Source: Escherichia coli
GTDB taxonomy: Bacteria > Pseudomonadota > Gammaproteobacteria > Enterobacterales > Enterobacteriaceae
DNA: 64,000 nt
NCBI RefSeq assembly: GCF_013122565.1
Contig: NZ_CP053258.1
Strand: one strand, 5' to 3'
The notes under the pieces were generated by a model, which had not been told where the DNA came from, searched no databases, and saw only the letters and a list, made by a program, of their open reading frames with translations. The stretch's first letter is position 1. Every line of letters starts with the position of its first letter. A program made the position numbers and the translations under genes. This document shows positions 15,666-60,483 of this stretch, piece by piece.

Positions 15666-16856
15666 ATGTTTGAGAACATTACCGCCGCTCCTGCCGACCC
15701 GATTCTGGGCCTGGCCGATCTGTTTCGTGCCGATGAACGTCCCGGCAAAATTAACCTCGGGATTGGTGTCTATAAAGATGAGACGGGCAAAACCCCGGTA
15801 CTGACCAGCGTGAAAAAGGCTGAACAGTATCTGCTCGAAAATGAAACCACCAAAAATTACCTCGGCATTGACGGCATCCCTGAATTTGGTCGCTGCACTC
15901 AGGAACTGCTGTTTGGTAAAGGTAGCGCCCTGATCAATGACAAACGTGCTCGCACGGCACAGACTCCGGGTGGCACTGGCGCACTACGCGTGGCTGCCGA
16001 TTTCCTGGCAAAAAATACCAGCGTTAAGCGTGTGTGGGTGAGCAACCCAAGCTGGCCGAACCATAAGAGCGTCTTTAACTCTGCAGGTCTGGAAGTTCGT
16101 GAATACGCTTATTATGATGCGGAAAACCACACCCTTGACTTCGATGCACTGATTAACAGCCTGAACGAAGCTCAGGCTGGCGACGTAGTGCTGTTCCATG
16201 GCTGCTGCCATAACCCAACCGGTATCGACCCTACGCTGGAACAATGGCAGACACTGGCACAACTCTCCGTTGAGAAAGGCTGGTTACCGCTGTTTGACTT
16301 CGCTTACCAGGGGTTTGCCCGTGGTCTGGAAGAAGATGCTGAAGGACTGCGCGCTTTCGCGGCTATGCATAAAGAGCTGATTGTTGCCAGTTCCTACTCT
16401 AAAAACTTTGGCCTGTACAACGAGCGTGTTGGCGCTTGTACTCTGGTTGCTGCCGACAGTGAAACCGTTGATCGCGCATTCAGCCAAATGAAAGCGGCGA
16501 TTCGCGCTAACTACTCTAACCCACCAGCACACGGCGCTTCTGTTGTTGCCACCATCCTGAGCAACGATGCGTTACGTGCGATTTGGGAACAAGAGCTGAC
16601 TGATATGCGCCAGCGTATTCAGCGTATGCGTCAGTTGTTCGTCAATACGCTGCAGGAAAAAGGCGCAAACCGCGACTTCAGCTTTATCATCAAACAGAAC
16701 GGCATGTTCTCCTTCAGTGGCCTGACAAAAGAACAAGTGCTGCGTCTGCGCGAAGAGTTTGGCGTGTATGCTGTTGCTTCTGGTCGCGTAAACGTGGCCG
16801 GGATGACACCAGATAATATGGCTCCGCTGTGCGAAGCGATTGTGGCAGTGCTGTAA
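15666..16856 (+). CDS. aspC: Aspartate aminotransferase
   Basis: 396-aa [39 protein letters not shown]…. Confidence 0.97.
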
Positions 16857-16871
16857 ACGTTAAAAACAATG

Positions 16872-16897
16872 AAGCCCGCTGAAAAGCGGGCTTTTTT
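16872..16897 (+). terminator. Rho-independent terminator after aspC (in convergent gap with gloC)
   Basis: AAGCCCGCT-gaaa-AGCGGGCTT hairpin followed by TTTTT. Confidence 0.7.
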
Positions 16898-16905
16898 ATG
16901 CGCCT

Positions 16906-17553
16906 TTACCAGACGGGCATTTCGTCTTGCAGGAAGGGATTATGCAGGCGTTCATAACCAAGTGTGGATAATGGTCCGTGACCCGGAATAAATGTCACGT
17001 CATCCCCCAGTGGCAGCAATTTATCTTTGATTGAAGAAATCAGTTGATTATGATCGCCACGCGGGAAGTCACTGCGCCCTACTCCGCCTTTGAAAATAAC
17101 ATCGCCAGAAATCAGCAGCTTTGCCCGATCATCAAAAAACACGACATGACCCGGCGTATGCCCAGGGCAATGTAACACCTGTAAAGTCACATTCCCTATG
17201 CTGATAGTATCGCCTTCGTTCAGCCAACGATCTGGTGTCAGCGGCTGGCACTCTTCCAGACCAAACATACGACTTTGCGCAGGCAAGCCTTGCAGCCAGA
17301 ACTCATCTTCTTTTTCCGGGCCAAAAACCGGCACGCCGTAATGTTGCGCCAGTTCCGCCGCTGCGCCAACGTGGTCCAGATGACCATGCGTCAGCAGGAT
17401 CTGCATCAGTGTCAGGCCGCTGTCATCAACTTCCTGTTTGATTTTTTCCGCATCGCCGCCAGGATCGACCAGTGCGGCCAGGCGGGTTTGTTCACACCAG
17501 ATCAATGAACAGTTCTGGGAGAATGCGGTGACCGGAATAATACGATAGTTCAT
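16906..17553 (-). CDS. gloC: Metallo-beta-lactamase-fold hydroxyacylglutathione hydrolase (glyoxalase II-like) GloC/YcbL
   Basis: 215-aa ORF with HxHxDH motif ([12 protein letters not shown]). Confidence 0.9.
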
Positions 17554-17579
17554 ACTGCCCCTGTTTCGTTAAGCGATTA

Positions 17580-18128
17580 CTACCAGTGCCGTGCTGGCCC
17601 GGTATCAATATGCACAAAGTTACTACGTGGGTAATATCCTACACCACCTGCGCGCATAGATAACGCGGCTTTGCGAATATTGCTTAACGCGATACCTTCA
17701 ATATGGAAATCCATCGCCTGGCCTTTAGTGTGATAGCTTTTCTTCGCTACTCCACGGCTGCGGGCGCGTAGTTCATTGTTGGTATCAATAGAACGATAAC
17801 CGGAAATGAGTTGCACCGGTTTGCGAGTGCCTAACAACCCTTGCAGGCGATACAACTGGTCGAATAATCCTGGGTCGATGGACTTTATTTTGTTCGCGCG
17901 GTAATCGCGGAAAAAATGGTTAAGTTTTGCCAATTCTTCCTGAATATAGCCTCTGCCATCGAAAAACTCCGCTTTGATTGACTCTCCGGTATGAAGATTA
18001 TTGAGTGTCAAAATGCGCGGGCGTGGGGTAGAGAGTGTTGCAAACGCAGGGGTCGGCAGGATGGCGGCACCGAGTGCAACGCCACCAAGCGCCAGCAATT
18101 TGCGGCGATTAGCGTCGAATTTGTCCAT
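17580..18128 (-). CDS. mepK: Peptidoglycan L,D-endopeptidase MepK (YcbK)
   Basis: ORF 17580..18137; start at MDKFDANRRKLLALGGVALGAA (twin-arginine-type signal), 182 aa. Confidence 0.9.
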   Translation of the reverse strand: MDKFDANRRKLLALGGVALGAAILPTPAFATLSTPRPRILTLNNLHTGESIKAEFFDGRGYIQEELAKLNHFFRDYRANKIKSIDPGLFDQLYRLQGLLGTRKPVQLISGYRSIDTNNELRARSRGVAKKSYHTKGQAMDFHIEGIALSNIRKAALSMRAGGVGYYPRSNFVHIDTGPARHW

Positions 18129-18308
18129 GATAATCAAGTCTACAGGTCAATGTTATCGTTTATATGCACTTCTGGCGCACAAGAGGCACCTTAACCGCCC
18201 GTAAAGCAGACGTCAAGATGACTCAACCCCAGCAGTGACGGGGGCTGCAGAGAATTGCCCCCAATCATGCTAATTATTACGACAACTGATTTCCCCGAAC
18301 TACTTCAT

Positions 18309-20156
18309 TTACCTGATTAATTGTTCCGCTTTCGATACGATTTGCGAGCTGGATCGCGCAGGCAGATCATAATTGTAAATATCTGTACGATACTGGGTAC
18401 GACCATCTGCACCAACAAAGGCCGTCAGGTAGTAGAGATTCACCGGAATCGACTGCCGAATATTGACGTAACGTGTATCACCCTGCTTCAGCGCATCAGA
18501 AATACGTTTGTCATTCCAGCCTGCATCCTGCAACAGCATATTCGCCAGATCGGAAGCTTTATTCACTCGTACACAGCCTGAGCTCAATGCGCGTGTATCA
18601 CGCTTGAACAGATTGTGGTTCGGCGTGTCATGCAAATAAATGGCCTCTGAACTCGGCATATTGAATTTATAGCGCCCCAGCGAGTTTCGTGGGCCTGGAG
18701 CCTGCTGGAAGCGGAACGGTAAATTCGAGGCCGTGATTGTAGACCAGTCAACCTGCCATGGGTCAATCGCTTCTCTGCTGTTCCAGCCGCGCATCACCGT
18801 ATAGCCATGGCTTTCGAGATATCCCGGATCGTTGCGCACTTTCGGCAGAATATCTTTGCGTGCCAGAGTTGGTGGTACGTTCCACGGCGGGTTTACCACT
18901 ACGTTGTTAAGGGCACTGCTCATCATCGGCGTTTTGCGATCGGGGCGACCGACAATGACTCGCGAATCCAGCACCTGATTGCCGTTCTGATAATAAACCA
19001 GCGAATAGGCCGGAATGTTAACCATGATCCCGGTAGAAAGCTCTGTTGGCAGCAAGCGCAATCGCTGGATGTTGAGAGCCAACACGCCAGCACGCTGGGC
19101 GGGCGTTACGTTTAACCAGTCCCGCGTTGCCGGGCCAATAGCACCATCTGCCCCCAATCCTTGCCATGCCTGAAAACGTTTAACGGCTTCCACCAGTTCA
19201 TTATCGTAGGCGGCACGAACGGCAGGCGCAGGTTTACTACGAGACGTCGTTTGTTTGTCCATCGGTTTAGTTTCTGCTGTTTCAACAGTAACAGCGGATG
19301 GGCTGACTACCGCGTCACTTGGCGTGTCATCGCCAGGTAGAGTAATTTTCGGCCCCCCGTCCAACATGCCTGTGCGTTGCAATATTTCGCGCAACGCCGG
19401 TACGTCGTTACTCCACTGCCCTGGGCGCAACGTTGCTTTACCGGTCAGTTGAGGCCACGGTTTGGTGTCACTGAGTAAGGCCAGTAACGATTCATGCATC
19501 GCCGCATATTGCGGATGCTGCGGTGCCAGTCCTGCAACAAACGTAGGCAATTGACCTTTATCCAGCGCCAGCTGCCATTGGTTAATCACCGAAAGCGGCG
19601 GCGTTGAAAGCGCATAAGGTTTACTGCTATATAGCCAGCGAGTGCCTTTGACCGGAATATTTGCAATGAAATGGAGATAGCCCATCATCGCATCGGAGAG
19701 CACCACGTCGCGTGCCATCCCGTTAACACCAGGATCGGTCAGTAACTCTACCCATTTATTAAACTGCGGCTGGAAACCGGCAATCGCCACCTCTGCCAGC
19801 TGTTGCTGGAAGGCTTTAACAGCATCACGGTTTTCCCACATGGGTTGCATATCGCGTGCGGCATACAACAGTTGAAGCTGGTTAAGATAAACCGGCTTGT
19901 AACCTGCGGGTAATTGAGATTCGATTTGCGTGCGGGCTTTTTCAGCCGCACCTTCAGGCAATGGCTGGATCCCCGCCATTATTGCCGTGGCTTGCGCCTG
20001 CGGCAGTGCCTCGCCCTGTTCACTGACAGCCACCGGGCTGTCGCCAGGGATTACTTCAGGCTCATCGGCCTGCGCATTGAACAGTGGAGCGAATGTTACG
20101 GCCAGGCACAAACTGATTGCCGACAGCCGACGACCACACATCATATTAAGCAACAT
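18309..20156 (-). CDS. ldtD: L,D-transpeptidase LdtD (YcbB)
   Basis: 615-aa ORF with signal peptide and YkuD-type catalytic region (…ALSSGCVRV…). Confidence 0.92.
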
Positions 20157-20377
20157 CCCTTGCCCCCTGTTTTTATCATACTCTGAATAGCCAGGCTGTT
20201 ATTTTACGACTTGCCTGTACAACGCCAATACTCACGAAAGTATGACGAGCAAGCCTGTTACTCATCAGGCTTATCTTCAGTATATAAACGCCGATACGTT
20301 TTTACATAACCTAATGTAAAGAAGTTTAAAGAAAAGCGCGCCGTTATGTGCCATTTTTTTAGTGCAGAAACGGAGTT

Positions 20378-20416: not shown

Positions 20417-23400
20417 TTAACTCGCCTGAGAAGGCGCTTCGTCACTTCCTGGAAGCGTTTCAGGGAGTTGCGGCGCAAATCCTCGCAGGCCGACGACATG
20501 AACGTGTTCGGTATTCTGGAAGACTTTACGTACCAGTTTATAGGTGGTGCCTTTTTCCGGACTGATATTTTCCGGCGCTGCGATGATGAGCTGCATTTGC
20601 AAACGTTCACACAATTCAAACAGCGTGGCGATAGAACGAGCATCCAGTCGCGCTGCTTCATCGAGGAACAGCAGGCGGCAAGGAGAGATATCTTTACCGC
20701 GCAGACGGCGAGATTCATCTTCCCAGCTTTGTACCACCATCACCAGAATCGACATACCGGTACCAATCGCCTCACCGGTCGACAATGCACCAGACTCTGC
20801 GCGCAACCAGCCATCGGAACCACGGTTAACCTCAACTTCCATTTCCAGATAGTTGCGGTAATCCAGCAGTTCTTCGCCAATGGTCTGCGGCGTGCGCTGC
20901 CCCATATCAATCTGCGGATTAAGACGCTGATACAATTTCGCCAGCGCTTCCGAGAAGGTCAGACGGTTGCTGTTAAACAGATCCTGATGCTGCTCGTGCT
21001 GTTCAGAGAGCACATCCAGCAGCATGGCGTGCGTTTCACGCACGTTCACGTTCAGGCGGACGCTGTTCACCTGACCGAACGATACGTTCTGCAAGCCCTG
21101 GTTGAGCATACGGATACGGTTCTGTTCGCGCTGAATAGTTTTGCGGATGATGTTCGCCACACTGCGGGAACTGATTGCCAGTTTCTGTTCACGGGAGGTT
21201 AACTCTTCGGTCAGACGGCTAAGTTCGATCTCCATCTGCTCGATAGCTTCCACTGGATCATCGGTACGAATAATATCCTGACGAATACGTTCACGCAGAT
21301 GCTGATAAACCGCCACGAAGAACTGGATTTTGCGCTCAGGTCGTTTCGGATCTTCCGACATACGCAGCACATCGCGCAGATGTTCGTTATCCGCCACCGC
21401 CAGACGCAGCGCACCCAACGCCTTATCCGACATGGAGCGCAAATCATCAGCGGAGAGATAAGCCAGCTCACGACGGTGTAAGCGGCGCTCAACGCCGTTA
21501 TCTTTCACCATGCGCATCACCGCACACCAGCCCGCTTTGGCGGTCACTACCTGCTCGCGCATCTCAAAGTAATCCCGCTCCAGCTTGCGCAGTTTGCGGG
21601 TCAGGTTGTCCATCTCCGCTTCGCAGAAGGTAAGCGCTTTTTCCAGTTGATTGCGGCGTGAACGGTTATTGCTCAGTTGCGCATGCAGCTCGTCACGGCG
21701 AATACGCGCCCGCTCTTCTGCCCCGCTATCAGCACGCACGCCGATATCCTGCAATTCACGTTGCAGATCGTTGAGTAGCTCTTTTTTGGTGTCGTAAGAA
21801 CTTTTCAGCGAAGCCAGCACCTGGTTGTACTGACTCAACTGCGCTGCGTGACCGCGCAACGCTTCGCGAGCGCGGGTACGCTCCGCTTCCGCCTGTTCCA
21901 GACGTTCACGCAGTTTTTCGTTGAGATCGCTGTTACCGCTAAGCATTTCTGCCGAGTCAGAGTAGCTAAAGTGCGCACGACGCTGCACCACTTCCGTCAG
22001 GGCAAACGCCTGCTGACGGGCATCACGCTGCATCTGCTGAGAGTACGCGTAATCTTCTTTTAACTGTTCGAACTGTTCCGGGTCGCTCTGCAACACTGAA
22101 ACAATCGGTTCCAGTTTCGCCAGTTGATTGCCAAACTGCTGAACAAAACGCGCGGCTTCCTGGGCTTCATCCAGACGTTCGCGGATTTCATCGACGCGAT
22201 CCGCCAGGCTGTCATCAGCCAACAGGTTGAGACGCGGCAGAATGCGGTTCAGCGCCGTAACGCCCTCTTTCGCCTGCTCAAATTGAATACGCTGCTGCTG
22301 GTTATCATTTTCATGATTACTCAGCGCCCGCTCCAGTTCGACGCGACGGCTGTTCAGTTGACGGATTTCTGCTTCCGGGTCAGACTCAAACGCCACCGCC
22401 AGATGACTGCCGATAAAGCGGCTGAACGCCTGATGCAGACGCTGGGTTTTCTGTACATCAAAGGAGAGCGTGGCGAAGCGTTCGGAAAGCACTTCACGCT
22501 CGGCATGGAGGCTTTCAATACGGCTTTCACGCGCAGCACGACCAAACAGCGGCACTTCCGGGAAACGTGAATAACGCCACTGACGATCGGCGATTTTCAC
22601 CACTACCGCTTTTTCCAGCTCATCAACGCTGAACACGCTGTCATCGAATGACTGCGGATCCCCTTCGATCAAATAGAGATCTTCCGGGCAATCGGTCAAG
22701 CCTTCCAGGTGTTCGGTTACCTGTGACAGATCTGGCACCACGATGGCGTGGCGTGACGGGCCATACAATGCCGAGAAGTACGGCGCATCTTCCAGGCTAA
22801 CGTCGTCATAAATTTCTGACAGCAGCACACCACCAAAACGCTCCGCCAGCGCGTTCAGACGCTGATCTTCCGAGCCGCCAGGCTGGCTTAAACGTTCGAT
22901 CTCTTCATCGACAGCGTTTTTGCGCGCGCCCACTTCATCGCGTTCAACAATCGCCTCTCGCTCACGCTCCAGCAACTGTTGCAGATATTCGGTAACGTCC
23001 TGGCTGGAGGTGAACTCTTCGCCGCACTGTTCGCTCAACTGGTTGAGACTGTTTTGCGCTGCCAGCCAAACCGGCGCACGCTGCATCAAACTCTGAATGC
23101 GAGACTGCAGCTGTTCCTGCTCCTGGCGCAGTGCCATACGCTCTTCGCGGGCGTTAGACACGCTATCGGAAAGAGAGGCAATACGCGCTTCCAGCTCCTG
23201 ATGCAGGGCTTCCAGTTCGTCGATATCAAAATTCTTGCCCTGACGTTTGCAGAAATCTGCCAGCAGGCGTTCGGCTTCTTGCTGCTCGCGCAGACGCTGT
23301 TCCAGTTCGCTTAAGCGCATCCGCAACGGCTGAACCTGCTCTGCCAGGTGACGCTGATCGACCCCTTCGCGCAATAGTTCGCGAGCGACATCCCACGCCT

Positions 23401-24877
23401 CGTTACGCGCCAGCGGGCCGTTGATTGCCACCACCAGCTGATAAGCCTGCTCAAACTGGCTGTGCGCGGTTTGCGCCATGCTCATTTTCTGCTCAAGAGA
23501 GAGCATTTTTTCAGTCGCTTCCAGCTCTTTCGCCTGGAAGGTTTCCAGCCATTCGGCGGCGCTGTCGGCGGTTAAGTCCGGCAGATGGCACAGTTCTTTG
23601 GCACGATTAAGCGCAGCAATCGCCTGGTTATACTGGATCGCGCGCGTTTGCTGGACGTCCAGCGCCTGCTGATAGTCAGCAAGCTGGCTTTTCAGCTCGT
23701 CCACTTCCAGTTCGGCAGCTTCCGCACGAGCCTCGTTCTCTTCCTGGCGTTCGATGGCTTCTGCCACCACTTCGTTTTGCTCTTCCAGACGGATCTGCAG
23801 CTCATCAAGATCCGCTTCGTAACGTTCGATCTTCTCCTGCTGACGTAGTGCGGTTTGCACCAGGTTCAGGTGATCGCTGGCCGCCTGATAATCTGCTTCC
23901 AGATCGCCTTCGGCACCGTTGTGCTCTGCCAGCTCACGCGCCATATCGACGTGTTTGTACTGCTCAGCCGCCAGTTGCTGACGCGAAGTATGTAGCTCGC
24001 GACGAAACTCCAGGGCTTTGTCGAGATGGACACGGCGCTCGTTGGCGTGACGCATGTAGTCCGCCGCCACGTAGTTGGTGGCTTCGCTGATCAGATGCTT
24101 AAACAGGTCACGGTCCGACTGGGTGACACGAATCGCTTCCAGCGTCATGCGATTTTCACGCAGTGCCGCTTCCATGTCCTGGAACGCTTTACGCACCCCG
24201 CTGTTTTCCGGCAACAGGTAGTCGCGCAGAGAACGGGTAATGGCACTGGAGATCCCGCCATACAGCGAAGCTTCGATCAGACGATAGAATTTGCTACGGT
24301 CAGATGCGGAGCGCAGACGACGCGCGATGATGCCCAGATCGAACATCAGCGAGTGGTAATCGGTAATGGAGTTGAACTGTTTAAACTGCACGCCTTCCAT
24401 CGCCTCGAGCTTGTCTTTCAGCTCGTTAAGCGGCAGCACGCGCGCCTGGCGTTCGTTCAGGGTTTCGGTCACCAACTGCGTCGGCTGCACCGACATCGGT
24501 AAACCCTGAATGGCAAACGGTTTGATATCGACTTTACGATCGCGTCCGGCAACCTGTTGCAGACGCACACCGACCACCACGCGCTGGTGGCGCGAGTTAA
24601 TGGTGTCGAGCATCGAATAACAGACACCCGCTTTCAGCTTACCGTGCAGACCTTTATCGCGCGAACCGCTGGTGGCCCCGGCTTCCGTAGTGTTACGGAA
24701 ATGCAGCAGGGTCAGGTCGGGGATCAGCGCCGTAACGAACGCCGCCATGGTGGTGGATTTACCCGCCCCGTTACCGCCAGAAAGCGTCGTGACCAGCTCG
24801 TCAAGGTCAAAAGTTCGGGCAAAAAAGCCGTTCCAGTTAATCAGCGTCAGTGAGCGAAATTTACCGCGTTCAATCAT
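20417..24877 (-). CDS. mukB: Chromosome partition (condensin) protein MukB
   Basis: 1486-aa [26 protein letters not shown]…; Walker [10 protein letters not shown]; long coiled-coil regions. Confidence 0.97.
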
Positions 24878-60245: not shown

Positions 60246-60415
60246 AATGGCTCACTCAAGCTTGCTCACGATTGATTCCAGTAACAAACCGTATTGTGTA
60301 ATTATTTCTATAGCAGTTCGCTATATAGGCTTGTATACATCGAATGATTTGAAAATCAAAGAGATAGGTAGATTTTCACTCGAAAGTAGTATTACGTGTA
60401 AGTGAGGAGTAATTA

Positions 60416-60429
60416 TTGTTCGGTATCAA
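60416..60429 (-). promoter_or_regulatory. FNR box of the dmsABC promoter
   Basis: On dmsA strand reads TTGAT-accg-AACAA (TTGAT-N4-ATCAA family), about 175 nt upstream of dmsA ATG. Confidence 0.5.
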
Positions 60430-60430
60430 A

Positions 60431-60462
60431 GGGAGACAAAAAAAGCGCCCGCAGGCGCTTTT
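60431..60462 (-). terminator. Rho-independent terminator after serS
   Basis: AAAGCGCC-cgca-GGCGCTTT hairpin; on serS strand followed by UUUUUUGUCUCC. Confidence 0.65.
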
Positions 60463-60483
60463 TAGATTCAGAAAAATTGGGTA

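Follow-up and report, generated by a model that had tools for sequence, protein, structure and literature searches.

The window analysed here, a 64-kb stretch of Escherichia coli DNA, carries the genes ldtD, mepK and gloC, and this region is the already characterised locus of E. coli K-12. The three products are 99-100% identical to those of K-12 b0925 (ldtD), b0926 (mepK) and b0927 (gloC), and RefSeq gives the genes the same names in E. coli genomes, K-12 b0925-b0927 included. As in K-12 MG1655, the locus lies between mukB and aspC, with the same genes, order, strand and flanks. The gap between ldtD and mepK differs from that of K-12 by a single base, located in the loop of a hairpin, and the only other notable difference is the distance between gloC and aspC, which is about 49 nt here versus about 221 nt in K-12. 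The features of the locus are as follows:

16872..16893, strand not assigned: inverted repeat between the convergent genes gloC and aspC; 9-bp stem with 6 GC pairs and a T-rich tail on the minus strand
16906..17553, minus strand: gloC (ycbL), 215 aa; metallo-beta-lactamase-fold hydrolase of the glyoxalase II type (Lactamase_B, 1.1e-40)
17554..17579, minus strand: mepK-gloC spacer, 26 nt, with a GGGG Shine-Dalgarno-like run
17580..18128, minus strand: mepK (ycbK), 182 aa from ATG; Tat-exported M15 L,D-endopeptidase
18163..18181, minus strand: stem-loop UGUGCGC-CAGAA-GUGCAUA, where the mepK mRNA is predicted to begin
18188..18216, minus strand: sigma-70-type promoter-like motif, TTGACG (18216..18211), 17-nt spacer and TAAGGT (18193..18188)
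18230..18272, minus strand: extended hairpin in the ldtD 3' region, with core GGGGGC-N11-GCCCCC at 18240..18262 and no U-tract
18273..18308, minus strand: conserved block ATGAAGTAGTTC...TGTCGTAA, directly 3' of the ldtD stop
18309..20156, minus strand: ldtD (ycbB), 615 aa; L,D-transpeptidase
20316..20330, plus strand: CpxR-box-like sequence GTAAAgaagtTTAAA, preceding the ldtD start by about 160 nt

A sequence-only reading of the window had described the three genes as adjacent and co-oriented, with 26 bp between mepK and gloC and 170 bp between ldtD and mepK. The open reading frames, all on the minus strand, confirm the arrangement, and the 26-bp gap is exact (17554..17579). The 170 bp was an approximation, since the distance from the ldtD stop is 180 nt to the mepK ATG (18129..18308) and 171 nt to the TTG at 18137, upstream of the ATG, where the mechanical open reading frame of mepK begins. 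Beyond gloC, 12 nt past its stop, the inverted repeat between gloC and aspC resembles a terminator when read on the minus strand, and it is likely to be the end of the mepK-gloC unit.

Family matches and identity to K-12 agree with the enzyme classes that had been proposed for the three products (L,D-transpeptidase, L,D-endopeptidase and glyoxalase-II-like protein). LdtD contains YkuD (4.6e-26), Scaffold (1.6e-17) and PG_binding_1 (6.2e-10) domains, scores 1200 bits against the PRK10594 equivalog model (cut-off 425) and carries the catalytic SSGCVRV motif in its translation, all of which place it among the YcbB/LdtD-type proteins. MepK belongs to its family by domain (Peptidase_M15_2), by equivalog score (274.9 bits with NF053624, cut-off 185), by conserved metal and catalytic residues and by a twin-arginine signal: H133, D140, H173 and D175 are invariant in alignments of 30 and of 10 sequences, and the RR of its NRRKLL motif, at residues 8-9, is invariant among the 10 aligned sequences, while in the 30-sequence alignment R9 is invariant and R8 nearly so. 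The H133A variant of MepK has been reported as inactive (bioRxiv 10.1101/2021.02.12.430937). Cleavage of 3-3 cross-links by the MepK of this window is presumed from the literature on the identical K-12 protein. GloC is 100% identical to its K-12 counterpart by tblastn and has the HxHxDH motif in the form THGHLDH, as expected for GloC; identification as GloB was rejected, with GloB equivalog models remaining below their cut-offs (111 vs 200.8). Many proteins of 500-730 aa with an N-terminal MepK domain were considered as possible LdtD-MepK fusions, but a Pfam scan of 10 of them found neither YkuD nor any other domain in the remainder, and the idea was rejected.

The functional relation between the two peptidoglycan enzymes is well described, with LdtD forming and MepK cutting meso-DAP-meso-DAP (3-3) cross-links (Voedts et al. 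2021, bioRxiv 10.1101/2021.02.12.430937; review PMC12729407), and production of YcbB (LdtD) in the absence of MepK has been shown to be lethal (bioRxiv 10.1101/2021.02.12.430937). Voedts et al. contains no passage on an operon, the locus or gene adjacency, its lone uses of "adjacent" and "downstream" concerning other matters, and the word "operon" is absent from the review (PMC12729407). Our comparison showed that ldtD lies upstream of mepK in all 77 Enterobacterales loci with enough flank to be informative, and that gloC lies downstream in 80 of 80, at a median distance from mepK of 39 nt (range 13-181). Of 10 informative distant lineages, 6 likewise have a same-strand gene of the YcbB/LdtD type immediately upstream of the MepK homologue; tight linkage of gloC is restricted to Enterobacterales and one relative. 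These results support the view that the adjacency of ldtD and mepK is not accidental. LdtD, MepK and their functional link were already known, and it is the breadth of conservation of the pair that is shown here. In several distant lineages the ldtD-type and mepK genes overlap or are separated by 35-66 nt, without a structured gap, and therefore the 180-nt structured gap is a derived addition and not a minimal operon junction.

The earlier reading had placed a GGGGGC-N11-GCCCCC hairpin of unclear role at 18233..18256; the hairpin is real, but its core lies at 18240..18262, 6-7 nt away. With its flanks it folds at -20.4 to -21.5 kcal/mol, and in 70 of 79 intergenic regions the same segment, about 36-80 nt past the ldtD stop, contains a hairpin of -15 kcal/mol or lower, whose sequence varies. 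It has the GC-rich stem-loop of an intrinsic terminator, and in genera such as Erwinia, Klebsiella, Phytobacter and Superficieibacter it bears a terminator-like U-run. A TTTT accompanies the hairpin in 22 of the 79 regions, none of them from Escherichia or Salmonella, and the E. coli tail, GUCACUGCUG, lacks the U-run. A simple consensus terminator scan did not list the hairpin, and Term-seq tables (PMC7815308) hold no RNA 3' end near K-12 982934-982956, which low ldtD expression could mask; the missing 3' end fits read-through and also low ldtD expression in the media used. A role for the hairpin as an attenuator is plausible.

The promoter-like motif starts 13 nt downstream of the hairpin. 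The pattern TTGACN-N17-TANNNT was found in 79 of 79 regions, with diverging flanks, and the spacer measures 17 nt in 78 of them. In E. coli the -35 hexamer (TTGACG) matches the consensus at 5/6 positions and the -10 hexamer (TAAGGT) at 3/6, and hexamers and spacing together are those of a sigma-70 promoter. The motif was unlisted by a simple consensus scan, and SMRT-Cappable-seq supplements have no entry for ldtD, mepK or gloC. Judged from its conservation, it would be the mepK promoter, with a predicted start near 18181. Readings of the motif as a sigma-54, sigma-32 or sigma-28 site were dropped by eye, given variable spacing or missing key bases. At the predicted start there is a small stem-loop, which in most genera begins 6-8 nt past the -10 hexamer; 86% of its cells are paired in the alignment, and its arms differ in sequence in Pantoea, Dickeya and Erwinia. 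The leader was folded sequence by sequence, as RNAalifold gave no consensus on the promoter-to-ATG alignment, where loop indels shift the 3' arm. Further downstream, the mepK-gloC spacer (17554..17579) contains no promoter- or terminator-like site.

Published regulatory data treat the two parts of the locus separately. ldtD is a member of the Cpx regulon (PMC12729407), whereas ycbK-ycbL (mepK-gloC) has been listed, apart from ycbB, as one operon, with 9.7- and 6.6-fold induction by sigma-E (Bury-Mone et al. 2009, PMC2731931), the main text of that work making no mention of ycbB. In Salmonella, sigma-E ChIP-seq showed a peak at ycbK (PMC4577112), and ycbK and ycbL had an equal fold change in a transcriptome (PMC4924334). 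Co-transcription of mepK and gloC fits with this co-induction and equal fold change and with the short spacer free of sites. The sigma-E unit consists of the same two genes as here, but no canonical GGAACTT-N16-TCAAA-type motif was found upstream of mepK and the motif in the gap is sigma-70-like. No sigma-E promoter (GGAACTT-like -35, TCNAA-like -10, 15-17 nt apart) could be detected in E. coli, either in the gap or in the 700 nt preceding mepK, and strict and relaxed motif scans across loci found nothing conserved, which leaves the reported sigma-E induction without an explanation in the anatomy of the locus. Separately, Cedecea-like loci have a sigma-E motif match at the block after the ldtD stop, which E. 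coli does not share.

As for Cpx control, the box upstream of ldtD, GTAAAgaagtTTAAA, has one mismatch to the CpxR consensus used here, GTAAA-N5-GTAAA, and matches of this kind are frequent by chance. The same box occurs in the mukB-ldtD gap of 31 of 72 loci. The candidate box is to be taken as a lead.

Taken together, we consider it probable that this conserved functional gene pair is organised as two adjacent same-strand units, ldtD and mepK-gloC. The first would be driven by its own upstream control region bearing the CpxR box, and the hairpin at 18230..18272 would be either a terminator, weak or leaky, or a stem-loop protecting the 3' end of the ldtD message. The TTGACG-N17-TAAGGT promoter would start the mepK-gloC transcript near 18181, with the small stem-loop at its 5' end, and this transcript would cross the spacer of 26 nt and stop at the inverted repeat that lies between gloC and aspC. 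With no U-tract behind the E. coli hairpin, some polymerases arriving from ldtD probably read on into mepK. The supply of MepK would thus be the sum of a baseline independent of ldtD and an increment upon ldtD induction; the promoter activity, start site, partial termination and read-through of this scheme are what we infer, while the identities of the genes, their conserved order, the conserved placement of the hairpin and the promoter-like motif are direct results. The E. coli operon rpsU-dnaG-rpoD is organised in a comparable way, a leaky terminator inside it preceding an internal promoter. The likeness lies in same-strand genes with a stem-loop and a secondary promoter between them and in partly coupled expression, which for the locus studied here is predicted from sequence.

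A single ldtD-mepK-gloC operon would account for the common strand and the conserved order, and in that case the hairpin would be an attenuator that adjusts the share of ldtD-promoter transcription passed on to mepK-gloC, with no significant internal promoter. The missing U-tract and the absence of a listed 3' end at the hairpin are compatible with it, as is suggestive covariation for a helix that could form only in a read-through transcript. We nevertheless regard a single operon as distinctly unlikely, given that the promoter-like motif is invariant in the 79 regions, that the published regulons differ (Cpx for ldtD, sigma-E for mepK-gloC), that RNA coverage is higher downstream than upstream (110 reads in the 800 nt upstream vs 225 in the 800 nt downstream of mepK +46; PMC7815308, supplement 3), and that distant lineages have the genes overlapping or 35-66 nt apart without such a gap. 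It had been suggested that the linkage reflects coordinated control of 3-3 cross-link turnover. Conserved adjacency and the published lethality support a linkage that is not accidental, but coordinated control through one transcript is not supported, because of the ubiquitous promoter-like motif, the separate regulons and the higher downstream coverage. That the hairpin is functionless, a GC-rich inverted repeat that arose by chance in non-coding sequence, is very improbable. Across a genome, 6-bp GC stems with 11-nt loops are not rare, and while the GGGGGC-N11-GCCCCC pattern has a sole match in the window, 5 of 100 shuffled windows contain at least one; the short hairpin segment alone reaches only z = -2.4. 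Against chance stand the recurrence of a stable hairpin at the same offset in 70 of 79 regions despite considerable differences in sequence and the 95-100% conservation of the region in 5425 of 5426 E. coli genomes.

The two-unit organisation does leave part of the gap unaccounted for. The -35 box lies strictly 90-93 nt past the ldtD stop, and neither this fixed distance nor the conserved post-stop block is explained by a plain terminator-plus-promoter model. The gap (18129..18308) had no Rfam match, either at an E-value threshold of 1 or at the gathering threshold; by eye, no convincing or conserved CpxR, Fur or CRP-like site was seen in the block, and a two-codon mini-ORF past the ldtD stop (ATG-AAG-TAG) was rejected as it is not kept across genera. 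Positions 18279..18286 of the block are complementary to 18152..18159, and a longer stem, 18279..18308 with 18133..18159, could exist only on read-through RNA, where it would enclose the hairpin, the promoter region and the 5' stem-loop, end a few nt from the mepK start codon and control mepK translation or processing. We consider this reading doubtful, though less so than a single operon. The 180-nt gap folds at -66.4 kcal/mol (z = -4.0), 66% of the cells of the long-range structure are paired versus 26-50% with the partner columns slid, and none of 500 shuffles reached the observed percentage paired or covariation score. Within the 8-bp helix, 6 of the 8 pairs show changes on both sides, and duplexes with the own partner beat cross-clade ones at z < -1.64 in about one third of species, among them Escherichia, Citrobacter and Serratia, whose sequences differ. 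However, the more robust counts did not reach significance, at 17/500 and 56/500 for the structure as a whole and 96/500 and 70/500 for the helix, and since the structure was built on the E. coli sequence, the slid control is biased. Several of the long-range pairs are unpaired in at least half of the species, the own-partner signal is absent in Pantoea, Erwinia, Pectobacterium and Cedecea, and both helix strands are conserved sequence blocks for which other purposes are conceivable. The comparisons hint at a long-range RNA helix specific to read-through transcripts. In its wider form, that in Enterobacteriaceae and Yersiniaceae the post-stop block pairs with the mepK leader by the ribosome-binding region, on read-through RNA only, and so makes an RNA switch, the proposal is a tentative one that we would not expect to hold. 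If it were true, the stem would act as a gate on MepK translation or give rise to a processing site, and Cpx-induced ldtD transcription would be coupled to, or insulated from, MepK output by something other than plain co-transcription.

These results add detail to a characterised system and open no new question. The 3-3 cross-linking by LdtD underlies beta-lactam bypass and survival of outer-membrane assembly defects, and wall growth in this mode depends on the hydrolase MepK for its viability. A broadly conserved pair that is arranged in separate and possibly partly coupled units would help in the reading of stress transcriptomes, and separate-unit wiring would help in designing ldtD or mepK deletions free of polar effects.

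Genome annotation and the K-12 identity of all three products show that the ldtD-mepK-gloC cluster is a known, already characterised locus, lying between aspC and mukB:

15666..16856, plus strand: aspC, one flank of the cluster
16906..17553, minus strand: gloC (ycbL), 215 aa; Pfam Lactamase_B, NCBIfam GloB equivalogs below their cut-offs
17580..18128, minus strand: mepK (ycbK), 182 aa from ATG; Pfam Peptidase_M15_2, NCBIfam MepK equivalog 274.9 bits (cut-off 185)
18309..20156, minus strand: ldtD (ycbB), 615 aa; Pfam YkuD, Scaffold and PG_binding_1, NCBIfam PRK10594 1200 bits (cut-off 425)
20417..24877, minus strand: mukB, the other flank

Of 5426 complete E. coli genomes, 5425 match the 3.7-kb stretch, the listed records name ldtD, mepK and gloC (b0925, b0926 and b0927 in K-12), and the three proteins are 99-100% identical to those of K-12. 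These families and identities bear out the same-strand cluster of the sequence-only reading, and its 26 bp between mepK and gloC are 26 nt exactly; the 170 bp it placed between ldtD and mepK are 180 nt if counted to the annotated start codon ATG and 171 nt if counted to an in-frame TTG further upstream. Just 49 nt separate gloC from aspC here (16857..16905), with one inverted repeat common to both, vs ~221 nt in K-12, which therefore has extra sequence absent from this strain and from L003, one of the loci compared. Within gloC, TGTCAGGCCGCTGTCATC (17410..17427, plus strand) is the same sequence as a published intragenic PhoB binding site (PMC10294691). Across the window, Rfam gives a single match that exceeds its gathering score, to the enterobacterial sRNA STnc130 (60336..60470, plus strand, 138.8 bits).

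Simple co-transcription of the three genes is not supported: the separate regulation, the transcript coverage and a promoter-like motif conserved between ldtD and mepK speak against it, and two adjacent units are the best-supported picture. Upstream of ldtD lies a CpxR-box-like sequence, GTAAAgaagtTTAAA (20316..20330, plus strand), present in the mukB-ldtD gap of 31/72 Enterobacterales loci; single matches to the CpxR-box consensus are common by chance. It agrees with the published inclusion of ldtD in the Cpx regulon; DeaD also controls ldtD at the translational level (PMC12729407, a review from which the word "operon" is absent). Sigma-E, for its part, induces ycbK and ycbL 9.7- and 6.6-fold, given as one operon, in a paper whose main text nowhere mentions ycbB (PMC2731931). 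A sigma-E ChIP-seq peak is found at ycbK in Salmonella (PMC4577112), and ycbK and ycbL change by an equal factor in another transcriptome (PMC4924334). No canonical sigma-E promoter was found upstream of mepK in E. coli, nor as a conserved feature across loci, which leaves the reported induction without a visible cis element.

The case for a putative mepK promoter rests on the conservation of a motif within the gap, followed by a small stem-loop:

18216..18188, minus strand: promoter-like TTGACG-N17-TAAGGT, 13 nt downstream of the gap hairpin
18181..18163, minus strand: stem-loop starting 6-8 nt past the -10, at the expected start site

Taken in one genome, the motif does not stand out (once in the window; at least one in 84 of 100 shuffles), and a consensus scan missed it because its -10 agrees with the consensus at just 3 of 6 positions. 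Across loci, TTGACN-N16-18-TANNNT occurs in 79/79 regions, 78 of which have a spacer of 17 nt, and lies 84-95 nt ahead of the mepK ATG in most; the alignments show no variation in TTGAC or in the T, A and last T of the second hexamer, while the spacer varies. The stem-loop has 86% of cells paired in the Enterobacteriaceae and Yersiniaceae alignment, and its arms differ at the same site in Pantoea (UGUGUAC/ACACA), Dickeya (GGUAC/GUACC) and also Erwinia. Without bicyclomycin, Term-seq coverage rises across mepK +46, from 110 reads over the 800 nt before it to 225 over the 800 nt after it (PMC7815308, supplement 3), which fits a transcription start within the gap. The same study reports a weak RNA 3' end 46-50 nt into the mepK ORF (K-12 983121/983125, window ~18082) with a borderline Rho effect (983121 score 1.81, "No"; region 983123 score 2.0, p = 6e-5); it falls in the Tat signal-peptide codons and may arise from early termination where the leader is poorly translated.

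Between ldtD and this motif lies the hairpin of the original proposal, whose repeat is present, 6-7 nt away from the 18233..18256 assigned to it:

18240..18262: inverted repeat GGGGGC-N11-GCCCCC, the only copy in the window
18230..18272, minus (gene) strand: extended hairpin, its stem lengthened by the flanks, -20.4 to -21.5 kcal/mol
18308..18273, minus strand: conserved block, ATGAAGTAGTTC...TGTCGTAA, the first ~36 nt past the ldtD stop, in Enterobacteriaceae and Yersiniaceae

Such a repeat is expected by chance in ~5% of shuffled windows. When 66 distinct gaps were aligned the layout was fixed: a single stem-loop of -15 kcal/mol or below falls within the stretch from the ldtD stop to the -35 box in 70/79 regions, mostly at ~nt 36 to 80 after the stop, and the stop to -35 spacing stays at 90-93 nt in most genera, though the enclosed hairpin sequence varies by genus. 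In Erwinia, Klebsiella, Phytobacter, Superficieibacter and others the 3' arm enters UUUU(U) and resembles a classical terminator; TTTT is present in only 22/79 regions, Escherichia and Salmonella being without it. The E. coli stem is followed by GUCACUGCUG, not a U-run, the hairpin was not called by a consensus terminator scan, an Rfam search of the gap matched no family, and the E. coli Term-seq tables give no RNA 3' end at the hairpin (PMC7815308). In the two-unit picture, the Cpx-controlled ldtD unit would end in this positionally conserved hairpin, which in E. coli lacks terminator features, the mepK-gloC unit would start at the promoter-like motif, and read-through from ldtD into mepK would be possible. 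One of the 5426 E. coli genomes, F2_81 (NZ_CP043542.1), has the gap broken at position 88, between hairpin and -35 box, with an IS481-family transposase annotated under the match; the mepK and ldtD units are naturally separated there.

No protein-binding motif or ORF was found to account for the conservation of the 18273..18308 block. The whole 180-nt gap has an unusually stable fold (-66.4 kcal/mol, z = -4.0) in which the block is base-paired to the leader immediately ahead of the mepK ribosome-binding region, the best helix joining 18279..18286 with 18152..18159.

Pairing of the long-range stem in a 39-sequence alignment (whole stem, 21 pairs; helix, 8 bp)
Cells paired: whole stem 66%; helix 70%
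Cells paired, partner slid 1-3 columns: 26-50%; 28-54%
Shuffles attaining the observed percentage paired: 0/500; 1/500
Shuffles attaining the covariation score: 0/500; 3/500
Pairs changed on both sides: 13/21; 6/8
Shuffles attaining that count: 17/500; 96/500
Shuffles attaining the count of further pair types: 56/500; 70/500

In about one species in three, Escherichia, Citrobacter and Serratia among them, duplexes with the own partner outperform those with cross-clade partners (z < -1.64), an advantage not seen in Pantoea, Erwinia, Pectobacterium and Cedecea. Since the structure was derived from the E. coli sequence and relatedness of the sequences inflates pairing and covariation scores, we treat the stem as a lead only, and one unlikely to prove real. 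If real, it could form only on read-through transcripts from ldtD, which would show that read-through itself matters. The finding is otherwise ordinary, this possible RNA structure being its sole non-trivial point.

The gene linkage itself is conserved. A MepK alignment run against a single genome of each species gave 80 loci, every one in Enterobacterales, from Escherichia to Edwardsiella, Dickeya, Pantoea, Yersinia and Serratia; ldtD is directly upstream of mepK in 77/77 with enough flank, gloC directly downstream in 80/80, and mukB and aspC flank most. Among distant MepK homologues (42-56% identity, drawn from the 1.8 billion representative proteins searched), a same-strand YcbB-type gene (Scaffold and/or PG_binding_1 plus YkuD) lies directly upstream in 6 of 10 informative lineages:

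P0124, P0126, P0135, P0153, P0157, P0190: YcbB-type gene upstream, the gap ranging from overlap to 240 nt
P0139, P0159, P0131, P0143: no YcbB-type neighbour
P0261: contig too short for a call, left out of the informative lineages

A GloC-like gene adjoins in only one of these distant loci and is 3 kb off in one other. Since Enterobacterales loci and six of the ten distant lineages keep an LdtD-type gene upstream, the ldtD-mepK pair is of long standing and widely distributed, and gloC is an addition of narrower reach. Long proteins that begin with a MepK domain were ruled out as LdtD fusions, a Pfam scan of ten having detected no YkuD in them; many MepK-domain proteins of 500-730 aa (P0148, P0158, P0162, P0165 and others) have 350-550 further residues at the C-terminus, in which Pfam recognises no domain. 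In L088, L089 and L094, loci of a distant lineage, the LdtD-type/MepK pair adjoins a TANGO2-family gene, opposite ptsP-like and NUDIX genes, a context common to two MepK clusters with 42-47% identity to E. coli.

The 3-3 cross-links are cut by MepK, without which YcbB/LdtD production is lethal (bioRxiv 10.1101/2021.02.12.430937); nothing was found in that preprint about an operon, the locus or the adjacency of the genes, its lone uses of "adjacent" and "downstream" concerning glycan strands and a cloning vector. The suggestion that adjacency reflects function was right and already had genetic backing, and the comparative data here show the ldtD-mepK pairing to be kept far outside E. coli.
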